In this document: positions 26,101 through 30,140 of the stretch, piece after piece
Layout: every line of letters starts with the position of its first letter
Position numbering within the stretch: the stretch's first letter is position 1
Origin: Bacteroidia bacterium
GTDB lineage: Bacteria > Bacteroidota > Bacteroidia > Bacteroidales > BM523
Length of the DNA: 34,627 nt
Assembly: GCA_016209245.1 (NCBI GenBank)
Contig: JACQWN010000247.1
Coordinates: forward strand, 1-34,627
Direction of reading: 5' to 3'
Notes under the pieces: generated by a model
Databases searched by the model: none
What the model was told of the DNA's origin: nothing
The model's input: the letters and a program-made list of their open reading frames with translations, nothing else
Position numbers and translations under genes: made by a program

Positions 26101-28459
26101 TAGCCCCTGTAGGATTTCCATAACATAAAATATTCGTTCCTGACAGATTTGCGGTTAATGCAGATATAGGTTGGTTGACAACAGCAGAATCAATAACTGA
26201 ACAATTATTTGCATCTGTTACAGTAATATAATATGTACCTGCGGGTATATTGTTTAAATCTTGACTATTATATATGTTTGACCAATTATAAATAAAAGGC
26301 ATAGTACCTCCGCTTACCGATAAATCAATCATACCTGTTGTACCACCATAACATCCTACATCAGTAGTAGAAATGGAATCAATAAGCAGTTGTGGGGGTG
26401 CAATAAGGTTTGTTGAAGCTTCTGCTATACAATTATTTGCATCGGTAACCGTTACCGAATATAAACCTGCGGTAATACCAAATAAATCTTCAGTAACTGA
26501 ACTGTTGTTCCAAAGATATGAATAAGGTAGTGTTCCGCCGTTTACTACTAAATTGGCAATCCCGTCTGAACCTCCGTTACAATCAGGATTAGTTTTGACA
26601 ATATAAGCTGATAACAGAGCGGCCGGCTGAGTTATAGTAAATGATGAAGATGAAGTGCAGAGATTAATATCTGTAACTGTTACACTATAAGTACCAGCTT
26701 GGACTGTATCTAAATCTTCATTATTATCTCCATTCGACCATTGGTAAGCATATAAAGGGGTTCCGCCTGATGTAGTAATATTTATGGCTCCTGAAGGGGA
26801 ATTAAAGCAATCAACATTTGTGATAATTGAAGTGATGCTAATTCCGGCAGCAGGTTCAGAAATATTTACTGCAGCAATGGTAGTGCAACCTTTTGAATCG
26901 GTTACAGTAACACTGTATATACCTTGCGGTACACCATATAAATCTGGGTTAAGATTACCATTAGACCAATTATAAAAATAAGGTATTGTGCCGCCCGTAA
27001 CAGTCAAACCGGCGGAACCGTTACTTCCTCCCTGACAACTTACGTTTGTGGCTATAATGCTTGTGACTAAGGGCTGCGGTTCGTTAACAGTAACGGAAGC
27101 AGTTGCTGTAACACTATTGGCATCGGTAACAGTGACAAAATAATTTCCGGCAAATAAATTTATCAAATCTTCGATTGTATCTCCGGTTGACCATAGATAA
27201 TTGTATGGAGCAACGCCACCGGATACCATAAGATTTGCAGCACCTGAGCTTTCTCCGTTACAACTTACATCTGTACCGGCTATAAGAACAGTCAAGAAAG
27301 ATGCCGGTTGCGTAATTGTTATACATTGACTGATTGTGCATAAATTAGCGTCAGTAACGGTAACACAATATGTTCCTGCTGTTAAATTAATGATATCTTC
27401 AGTAGTTTCGCCGTTTGACCAGTTATATGTATAGCCCGGTGTACCGCCGGAGACGGTCAGGTCGGCCGAGCCGTCACTGCCTCCAAAAGCGCTGACATTG
27501 CTTCCGGTAATACTTGCCGTTAATGATGAAGCAGGTTGGTTTATTGTAACAGATACTGTATCAGTACAACCCGATGCATCAGTAATTGTAACGCTGTATA
27601 TTCCGGCAGTCACGTTCGATATATCCTGATTTACAGAACTATTCGACCACAAATAAGAATAAGGCGTTATTCCGCCTGCAACGGTCAAATCGGCAAGCCC
27701 ATCATTTCCTCCGAAACAATTTACATCGGTGCTTGTTATAGATGCAGTAATATCGGCAGGCTCCGTAATAGTAACCGATGCGGTAGCTGCAACAAGATTG
27801 GAATCAGTAACAGTTACAGTATATATGCCGGCGGGTAAATTAAAAATATCTTCTGTAGTCTCACCATTTGACCAAATAATTGTATATGGTGCGATACCGC
27901 CGGAAACTGATAAATCAGCCGCGCCGGAACTATCATTATAACATGTAAGGTTTGTTCCGATGATTACAGGAATTAAGGCACCGGGTTCATATATTGTCAC
28001 TGAAGCAACCGTTGTGCAACCATTATTATCCGTGACTGTAACAGTATATGTTCCCTGAGCAAGACTATCAATATCTTCTGTAGTTTCGCCATTTGACCAT
28101 AGATAAGTATATGGGGCAGTTCCTCCGGTCACAGTCAAATCGGCAGAACCATCATCAGCTCCGAAAGCGCTAAGATTTGTACCTGTTATACTTGCAGATA
28201 GAGGAGCGCCCGGTTCATTAATAATAATAAAAGTAGAATCAACACAACCATTGGCATCAGTAATTATCACAGTGTAAATACCGGCACTCAGGCTATATAA
28301 ATCCTGATCGGTTGACCCATCAGACCATAAATAAGTATAAACAGGCGTTCCGCCTGCAACGGATAAATCAGCGCTACCGTCATTACCTCCGAAACAATTT
28401 ACATCGTTTACTGCAACCGAAGCGGTTAATAAAGCAGGTTCGGTAATAGTAACCGAATC
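23102..28459 (-). CDS. C-terminal segment of giant gene 2 (SprB-repeat adhesin with T9SS type B CTD); reading frame open from 28459 and separated from the N-terminal segment by a frameshift
   Basis: The ORF track lists 23102..28270, but that 'M' is an internal GTG (Val in ...[13 protein letters not shown]...). Hand translation shows the frame stays open upstream to 28459 ([64 protein letters not shown]...), with TAA at 28462-28460. It contains 22 SprB-type units. Its last 93 aa are identical to the gene 1 type B CTD at 83 of 93 positions by my count. Confidence 0.85.
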   Translation of the reverse strand, partial: [1785 protein letters not shown]

Positions 28460-30140
28460 TTACACCACCGGAAACAGTTAAATCTGCAGCGCCGGTTGAA
28501 TCTCCATTACAATCAACATTCGTTCCTGCAATAAATGCGATTATAACACCGGGTTCATTGATTACTACTGTTGCAATAACAGTACATCCGTTGAAATCAG
28601 TTACCGTAACGGTATAAATTCCTCCTGAAAGACTGTCTAAATCTTCGATAGTATCGCCGTTTGACCACATAAATGAATAGGGAATTGTTCCGCCCGAAAC
28701 CGTTAAGCCGGCAGACCCATCACCGGCGCCTGCTGCCGTAACATCAGCGCCAATAATGCTTGCTGATAAAGAATCAGAAGGTTCGGTAATAGTAACTGAA
28801 GCAGTTGTAGTACATAAATTAGCATCGGTTATAGTTACATCATATATTCCGGCGGTCAGGTTATATAAATTCTGATCGGTTGAAGCGTCAGACCAAAAAT
28901 AAGTATAAGCAGGCGTTCCGCCAGCAACGGATAAATCAGCGCTGCCGTCATTTCCCCCGAAACAATTTACATCGTTTACTGCAACCGAAGCGGTTAATAA
29001 AGCAGGTTCGGTAATAGTAACCGAAGCGGTAACAGATATCGAATTAGCATCGGTAACTGTTACGGTGTAAACACCGGCAGGTAAACCCGATATATCTTCA
29101 GTTGTTGCCCCATTCGACCATAAATAAGTGTAAGGAATTACACCGCCGGAAACAGTTAAATCTGCAGCACCGGTTGAATCTCCATTACAATCAATATTCG
29201 TTCCTGTAATAAATGCGGTTAAAACACCGGGTTCATTGATTACTACTGTTGCAGTAACAGTACATCCGTTGAAATCAGTTACCGTAACGGTGTAAGTTCC
29301 TCCTGATAAGCTATCTAAATCTTCGGTCGTTTCCCCGTTTGACCATATAAATGAATAGGGAATTGTTCCGCCCAAAACTGTCAAGTCGGCAGAACCATCA
29401 TCGGCTCCTGCTGCCGTAACATCAGTGCCAATAATGCTTGCGGATAATGAATCAGAAGGTTCGGAAACAGTAACCGAAGCAGTTGTAGTACACAAATTAG
29501 CATCGGTTATAGTTACATCATATATTCCGGCGGTCAGGCTAGATAAATCCTGATCGGTTGAAGTGTCAGACCATAAATAAGCATAAGCAGGTGTCCCGCC
29601 GGCAACGGATAAATCAGCGCTGCCGTCATTTCCTCCGAAACAATTTACATCGTTCACTGCAACCGAAGCGGTCAATAAAGCAGATTCGGTAATAGTAACC
29701 GAAGCGATAACAGATATCAAATTAGCATCGGTAACTGTTACGGTGTAAACACCGGCAGGCAAATTAGATATATCTTCAGTTGCCGCCCCATTCGACCATA
29801 AATAAGTGTAAGGAATTACACCGCCCGAAACAGTTAAATCTGCAACGCCGGTTGAATCTCCATTACAATTGATATTAGTGCCTGTAATAAATGCAATAAT
29901 AACACCCGGTTCATTGATAGTGACAGTTGCGGTAACAGTACATCCGTTGAAATCAGTTACCGTAACAGTGTAACTTCCTCCTGATAAGCTATCTAAATCC
30001 TCAGTTGTTTCTCCGTTTGACCATATAAATGAATAGGGAATTGTTCCGCCCGAAACCGTTAAGTCGGCAGAACCATCATCAGCTCCTGCTGCTGTAACAT
30101 CAGCGCCAATAATACTAGCGGATAATGGATTAGAAGGTTC
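27539..30140 (-). repeat. Higher-order tandem array: four copies of a 678-bp (226-aa, three SprB units) module, the third copy carrying a 110-bp deletion
   Basis: Module starts (the Glu codon of EPS/GxxLSASI.G) lie at 30140, 29462, 28784 and 28216, and the next related module starts at 27538. The spacings are 678, 678, 568 and 678 bp. Copies 1-3 are nearly identical by eye and copy 4 is more diverged. Related modules also lie at about 30828-31505 and 26860-27538. Confidence 0.9.

Follow-up and report, generated by a model that had tools for sequence, protein, structure and literature searches.

The 34,627-bp window analysed here, a whole contig of the short-read GenBank MAG "Bacteroidia bacterium", carries a putative giant adhesin gene of the SprB-repeat type, which lies on the minus strand, runs from past the window's right end to 23102, and has its reading frame broken where a net 110 nt are missing from one copy of a tandem 678-bp module. 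The break is best read as a real null allele (probability about 0.6), in which a frameshifting deletion represents an ordinary, recent inactivation of the adhesin gene; this is likelier than an artefact of assembly or scaffolding. The two parts of the gene are annotated as separate proteins, MBI4646927.1 and MBI4646926.1 (Table 1).

Table 1. Features of the broken adhesin gene and of its paralogue in the window.
Feature	Position	Strand	Details
Deletion junction	28458..28460		+ strand ...GTAACCGAA / TCT / TACACC...; sense ...GGTGTAA / GA / TTCGG...
Out-of-frame tail of upstream ORF	28383..28457	-	Other frame of the same DNA reads as normal repeat sequence
Module M3, broken	28370..28937	-	568 bp instead of 678 bp
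Module M2, intact, three SprB domains	28938..29615	-	29026-29138 corresponds to the stretch lost in M3
Module M1, intact	29616..30293	-	From spacing and alignment
Module M0, intact, more diverged	30981..31658	-	From spacing and alignment
Upstream part of adhesin gene	28386..34625	-	MBI4646927.1, 2080 aa, partial; 5' end past contig end
Downstream part of same gene	23102..28459	-	+1 frame; annotated from GTG 28270 as MBI4646926.1, 1722 aa
Type B T9SS C-terminal sorting domain	23105..23374	-	CHU_C PF13585, TIGR04131; downstream half only
Intact paralogue	1065..11378	-	MBI4646919.1, 3437 aa, one ORF

Two large ORFs, 23102..28270 and 28383..>34265, occupy frames 1 and 2 of the minus strand (counted from high coordinates). 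The preliminary description took them to be one repeat-protein gene in different frames, and this is borne out by the frames, by the module alignment and by the SprB repeats found in both; the upstream ORF, which was said to begin at 34265, is actually open to the window end (34625). This ORF contains 25 SprB repeat stretches (PF13573, 807 bits), with its last 25 codons out of frame, and a scan with Pfam and NCBIfam profiles finds no T9SS sorting domain in it, because the frameshift cuts the ORF off from that domain. The downstream ORF contains 20 SprB repeat stretches (572 bits), has an N-terminus that falls mid-domain (VIITDANGC...) and lacks a signal peptide, and ends in the sorting domain at residues 1633-1722, which scores 67 bits with PF13585 and 64 bits with TIGR04131 against cut-offs of 27 and 35 bits. 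Neither half has a further stop or frameshift across 11.5 kb.

The nearest known counterparts are SprB of Flavobacterium johnsoniae and SprB-like, gliding-motility-associated adhesins with a type B CTD, which undergo Sec export, followed by type IX secretion and anchoring through the type B C-terminal domain; an adjacent cognate PorP/SprF-like gene is usual for such adhesins, though not universal. PMC9143113 and PMC12618676 deal with this class, and according to the latter T9SS cargo must carry a CTD as well as a Sec signal peptide. The gene in the window shares with the SprB type its giant size, its Bacteroidota host and two of the features by which a SprB-like T9SS type B CTD adhesin is recognized, tandem SprB repeats (PF13573) and a C-terminal type B sorting domain (PF13585/TIGR04131). 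The GenBank product name is 'gliding motility-associated C-terminal domain-containing protein', and the best protein matches outside this contig reach at most 43% identity. Judged from its sequence, the product is predicted to be a SprB-type giant cell-surface adhesin, with a putative role in gliding. Unlike the SprB type, the gene is broken by a frameshifting deletion, and an IS1634 element stands where a PorP/SprF-like partner might adjoin: the element lies 106 bp downstream of the adhesin stop codon, and a Pfam and NCBIfam scan of window ORFs of at least 100 aa finds no PorP/SprF-like gene beside the adhesin.

The 678-bp module comprises three SprB domains, and the repeats have periods of 225-228 and 678 nt. 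In a MAFFT alignment of four module copies (M0-M3), a single 110-column gap appears, in M3 only, in agreement with the earlier observation that 113 nt are replaced by 3 nt, a net loss that is not a multiple of 3. On the + strand, 28439-28457, TCT and the sequence from 28461 onward correspond to 29007-25, a 113-nt segment (29026-29138) and the sequence from 29139 onward; the string originally aligned, given as 28439-28470, extends to about 28490. The reported module spacing of 568 rather than 678 bp is recovered when it is measured for the repeat families D4, D8 and D9. The sequence spanning the junction, read on the + strand, is GTAATAGTAACCGAATCTTACACCACCGGAA; its microhomology is confined to GAA/TTC (3 nt), accompanied by 2 filler bases; 2-3 bases are untemplated, and the junction 14-mer occurs once in the window, even at 2 mismatches. 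The stretch 28389-28457 is an exact 69-bp copy of 28957-29025, and the flanks match M2 (97% identity across 86 nt to one side, 91% across 300 nt to the other), which shows that the correspondence of the broken and intact copies is not due to chance. Past the break, the upstream frame continues for 25 out-of-frame codons (RFGYYYRTCFINRFGCSKRCKLFRR) and terminates at a TAA at 28383-28385. In the other frame, a TAA occupies 28460-28462 and the reading is uninterrupted from 28459 down to 23102. Both ends, proposed on first inspection, can be read directly in the translations, and frame readings and module alignment together confirm the frameshift in the sequence as given.

The modules are less alike than the preliminary description held in calling them near-identical. 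Identity between modules is 87-97%, with about 9% of sites differing; upstream of the break, 41 of 477 sites distinguish M3 from M2, with a dN/dS of about 0.4, and M3-specific SNPs (sense ...CCGGTGGTGTAA) mark the broken copy. Nowhere in the gene does an exact repeat exceed 69 bp. Around the missing segment, as located from the sister copies, the exact stretches common to other modules are a 69-mer (28957-29025), a 40-mer (29042-29081) and a 55-mer (29107-29161), and the 110-nt loss is in register with neither the 225-bp nor the 678-bp period.

The paralogue has the same architecture as the broken gene but in a single ORF, and thereby provides an internal reference for the unbroken layout. It consists of a signal-peptide-like N-terminus beginning MKRLFYCFIAISLSGFIFSTRVFSQ, a CUB-like N-domain, SprB repeats and a type B CTD. 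Its residues 471-2529 are 51% identical to the upstream half, and its residues 1650-3437 align with the downstream half across about 1800 residues at 63% identity; the C-terminal domains of the two genes have exact 35- and 38-mers in common. The amplified module is present in one copy in the paralogue, as opposed to M0-M3 plus older copies in the broken gene.

A real null allele could have arisen as follows. The three-domain module would have been recently amplified within the adhesin gene, and an illegitimate deletion in one copy would have removed the second half of one SprB/Ig-like domain of ~75 aa. The net 110-nt loss, marked by 3 nt of microhomology and 2 filler bases, would have shifted the reading frame, and translation from the native start would end 25 codons past the break, giving a product of >2000 aa devoid of the C-terminal sorting domain. 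Lacking this domain, the truncated product presumably could neither pass the outer membrane nor become anchored; the 1785 codons past the break, with no start codon nearby and no signal peptide, would give rise to no useful protein. A truncated upstream product and an unmade downstream part would together render the allele null, and we infer that function is lost. As in a pseudogene, the frame is broken relative to the intact copies, and the downstream part has neither its own start nor an export signal. Because no other lesion has accumulated over the 11.5 kb, the event is probably very recent or confined to part of the population. The absence of secondary decay is equally expected of an artefact, and in this respect counts against a real allele; so do the 2-3 untemplated bases, atypical of simple replication slippage.

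A possible but less probable explanation is that the break arose as an artefact of local assembly, scaffolding or gap closing and that the true genome has an intact third 678-bp module. There would then be one unbroken gene of >3870 codons, the loss having been made, perhaps, when contig ends in a repeat tangle were joined. The contig end indeed falls within the adhesin gene itself, in a 228-bp tandem repeat, where the assembler struggled, an observation that also weighs against a real allele. In addition, both halves are otherwise perfectly open, and the missing segment sits between the exact shared 69-, 40- and 55-mers, with a graph that is tangled here at small k. In a possible source study (He et al. 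2021, PMC7906910), MEGAHIT contigs were passed to the IDBA-UD scaffolder, which could bring local errors. Collapse of near-identical 678-bp repeats, the artefact originally suggested, nevertheless fits poorly with identities of 87-97%: it is expected at identical stretches that exceed k-mer or read length and should remove whole units in register, whereas here the longest such stretch is 69 bp and 110 nt are lost, compared with units of 225-228 and 678 nt. In contigs built from a de Bruijn graph, each junction k-mer must be present in the reads, and this junction has no shared k-mer, includes 2-3 bases that neither flank contains and occurs nowhere else in the window. A check for N runs found no N anywhere in the window. 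We infer that the junction belongs to the DNA and not to the assembly alone.

Public collections were searched for the junction and for relatives of the gene. The adhesin ORF and one neighbouring gene have no exact match in public assemblies; through other neighbours in the window, Logan contigs from SRR12113402, SRR12113405 and SRR12113406 were reached that match the window at 100% identity, and the junction is covered by none of these contigs. The intact-copy alternative to the junction is the M3-specific CCGGTGGTGTAA joined to TTCCTTACAC. An exact peptide look-up of predicted k=31 unitigs in Logan found 0, in a look-up that missed long control unitigs too, and a 40-aa protein query with the out-of-frame tail gave 0 candidates, missing even the GenBank protein that ends in this tail. 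An M3-specific 35-mer beside the junction has 0 hits in JGI metagenome contigs and GTDB genome contigs. Among GTDB genomes, the C-terminal 300 aa retrieve relatives at 31-44% identity only, and the collections searched hold no second assembly or close relative of the organism; with relatives at no more than 44% (GTDB) and 43% (protein search), there is no orthologue to compare.

It is very improbable that the break is tolerated or reversible, so that a +1 ribosomal shift, or gene conversion from M2/M1, would turn adhesin expression on and off. The upstream frame closes with the sense codons UUU CGG AGG before its UAA, and a +1 slip on UUU_C would enter the downstream frame within the 76-nt frame overlap that contains UUU_CGG AGG UAA; M2, with its flank identity of 91-97%, could act as a conversion template. 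Yet UUU_CGG is the out-of-frame reading of a conserved NCFGG motif that the aligned sister modules share, and is not a selected signal. Arg codons are all rare in these Arg-poor proteins, which makes codon usage uninformative. A shifted product would still carry 25 nonsense residues and miss half a domain, and no orthologue above 44% identity, in which the site might be conserved, turned up in the collections searched. The on/off length change of the adhesin envisaged at first would also call for the hallmarks of a phase-variable locus, but 28440-28480 is free of tandem and simple repeats, and neither a simple-sequence tract nor an invertible element lies at the break. A broken module acting as a reversible switch that silences a surface adhesin of ~4300 aa, with expression regained by slippage or conversion, is very improbable. 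Nothing supports phase variation or programmed frameshifting; the UUU_C site, a formally possible +1 frameshift signal, was considered and found to be without support.

Least probable of all is that the two ORFs are genuinely separate functional genes, as their annotation in GenBank as two CDSs would have it: the last 25 codons of the upstream ORF are DNA 97% identical to in-frame M2 coding sequence, that ORF lacks a T9SS sorting domain, the downstream ORF opens with a GTG in the middle of a domain and has no signal peptide, and the paralogue is a single ORF. The module alignment effectively refutes a two-gene reading. MBI4646927.1 and MBI4646926.1 should be regarded as a single disrupted SprB-type adhesin gene or, should the break prove to be an artefact, as a single intact one.

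Frameshifted or pseudogenised repeat adhesin genes are seen in many bacterial genomes and MAGs, and to find a lone adhesin gene with a frameshift in a short-read MAG is nothing unusual. In common with other disrupted repeat adhesins, this gene has an internal deletion that is not a multiple of 3, and both halves are still open; the deletion falls at a 3-nt microhomology inside one domain, not between repeats, and is otherwise not distinctive. It is not a new kind of biology, raises no new question and has little significance beyond annotation. If the deletion is real, it adds a further example of the fast turnover of giant repeat adhesins in Bacteroidota, in a setting that includes an intact paralogue and a nearby, active IS element.

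The window is a whole contig of 34,627 bp, free of N, from a metagenome-assembled genome (MAG) that GenBank lists as "Bacteroidia bacterium" (locus tags HY738_); all of its large genes are on the minus strand. The upstream frame of the broken adhesin gene is open from the right window end, at 34625 rather than at 34265 as listed in the preliminary description, and encodes a normal SprB-repeat protein as far as the break, after which 25 nonsense codons (RFGYYYRTCFINRFGCSKRCKLFRR) lead to a TAA stop at 28383-28385. The second frame carries a TAA at 28460-28462 and runs uninterrupted from 28459 to 23102. 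Apart from that ORF start and the end of a quoted string, the coordinates first reported were correct. When the four 678-bp module copies (M0-M3) were aligned with MAFFT, one gap of 110 columns appeared, confined to M3; the spacing in the repeat families is 568 bp at one place and 678 bp elsewhere, and on the plus strand TCT (28458-28460) stands in place of 113 nt of M2 (29026-29138). Accordingly, the frameshifting 110-nt deletion originally noticed is confirmed. One domain of ~75 aa thereby loses its second half.

Features of the broken adhesin gene and its surroundings (plus-strand coordinates)
Feature	Position	Strand	Size	Remarks
DUF3368 (PIN-like) ORF		(-)		next after UPF0175 gene; extends past left contig end
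UPF0175 protein	458..709	(-)	83 aa	PF03683, 67 bits
Intact paralogue (MBI4646919.1)	1065..11378	(-)	3437 aa	one ORF
ORF without family match	11514..12584	(-)	356 aa	
ORF without family match	12597..13064	(-)	155 aa	
S8 serine peptidase	13336..18873	(-)	1845 aa	type A CTD
Small type A CTD protein	18870..19760	(-)		
Small type A CTD protein	19766..20728	(-)		
IS1634-family insertion sequence	20816-22995		~2180 bp	terminal inverted repeats TTAACCCAACTTG
IS1634 transposase	20851..22737	(-)	628 aa	NF033559, 236 bits
Strong inverted repeat	23000-23101			CTGTCAGTCCCGAA TAA TTCGGGAGCTGACAG
Downstream ORF, MBI4646926.1	23102..28270	(-)	1722 aa	GenBank [quoted passage not shown]; frame open from 28459
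M3	28370-28937			module copy with gap
Upstream ORF, MBI4646927.1	28386..34625	(-)	2080 aa	GenBank "hypothetical protein, partial"
M2	28938-29615			module copy
M1	29616-30293			module copy
M0	30981-31658			module copy
228-bp tandem repeat	34054-34627			2.4 copies, 78% matches

SprB repeats (PF13573) make up both halves, in 25 stretches upstream and 20 downstream, and a type B T9SS sorting domain (CTD) occurs only at the end of the downstream half (residues 1633-1722; PF13585, 67 bits; TIGR04131, 64 bits). Besides SprB repeats and a type B CTD, the intact paralogue carries an N-terminus that resembles a signal peptide, and its N-terminal region is CUB-like (PF00431). Both halves align with this single ORF, the upstream half at 51% identity to residues 471-2529 and the downstream half at 63% to residues 1650-3437; the two ORFs are thus parts of one gene, as initially claimed. 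Exact 35- and 38-mers are common to the paralogue's C-terminal region and the broken gene. The intact product inside the window would amount to 2055 + 37 + 1785, or about 3877 residues, and comparison with the paralogue suggests that roughly 470 more would lie beyond the contig end. The contig stops inside the gene, so the N-terminus and signal peptide are missing, and since it does so within a tandem repeat, the assembler evidently broke on the gene's repeats. SprB-like type B CTD adhesins of Bacteroidota are a well-known family, and this gene adds a disrupted member to it. It shares the repeats and CTD of that family, but an adjacent PorP/SprF-like gene was not found; none turned up among the ORFs scanned in the window, despite two type B CTD adhesin genes there.

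T9SS cargo depends on a Sec signal peptide as well as on a C-terminal domain (PMC12618676). Because the upstream product lacks a CTD, and the downstream ORF, which has no signal peptide, begins mid-domain at a GTG 63 codons past the break, the allele as written is presumably null. No other stop or frameshift occurs in either half over 11.5 kb, and differences among the modules give a dN/dS of about 0.4, that is, moderate purifying selection, which suggests that the gene was functional until very recently, or would still be so if the break were an artefact.

The deletion is probably a real allele (probability about 0.6). Assembly error is a possible, though less likely, source of the break: the contig terminates in the same gene, inside the 228-bp repeat; the missing segment, judged by the sister copies, is flanked by stretches exactly shared with other modules; and in the study from which the MAG may come, MEGAHIT contigs were then scaffolded with IDBA-UD (PMC7906910). 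However, a collapse of near-identical 678-bp repeats, as first proposed, fits poorly. Upstream of the break, 41 of 477 sites distinguish M3 from M2, and no exact repeat in the gene exceeds 69 bp (28389-28457 = 28957-29025). The loss of 110 nt fits the register of neither the 225-228-bp domain period nor the 678-bp module period, and the junction (sense GGTGTAA-GA-TTCGG) has only TTC in common with the intact sequence, includes two bases from neither flank and is unique within the window with two mismatches allowed. De Bruijn graph assemblers yield contigs whose k-mers are all present in the reads, and form chimeric joins at shared k-mers; the M3 junction arises from neither property.

That a programmed +1 frameshift or gene-conversion repair restores the frame is highly improbable. 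Although a slip at UUU_CGG shortly before the UAA would bring it back, UUU_CGG is only the out-of-frame reading of the NCFGG motif conserved in the sister modules, the resulting product would be damaged, and no orthologue above 44% identity turned up in the collections searched. As to phase variation, the suggested on/off length change of the adhesin, neither a simple-sequence tract nor an invertible element lies at the break. Two separate genes are rejected, since in-frame M2 coding sequence matches the DNA of the nonsense tail at 97% identity. Internal deletions that shift the frame of a repetitive adhesin gene are commonplace, and the outcome is an annotation correction for the MBI4646926.1/MBI4646927.1 region.

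Close relatives are lacking: the best non-self protein match among 5.8 billion sequences was at most 43% identical, the best related locus in GTDB genomes 44%, and an M3-specific 35-mer matched neither JGI metagenome contigs nor GTDB genome contigs. The organism's reads are public, since Logan assemblies of three runs (SRR12113402, SRR12113405 and SRR12113406) carry pieces 100% identical to the window, comprising the IS element and positions 18612-19830; no Logan contig crossing the junction was recovered. A Logan protein search with the nonsense tail gave no match and also missed its positive control; peptides of predicted unitigs were absent from Logan data, as were control peptides.

The IS1634 element follows the adhesin stop codon at a distance of 106 bp, and its transposase is annotated in GenBank as a shorter protein of 591 aa. 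Logan contigs of the same three runs hold copies 100% identical to the element; two of these have different flanks, so the genome or community contains more than one copy. Between the stop codon and the IS end, the inverted repeat may serve as a terminator of the adhesin gene. Additional T9SS cargo genes are clustered at 11514-20728, with the two ORFs that lack a family match alongside, and a toxin-antitoxin-like pair occupies 1-709, both on the minus strand.
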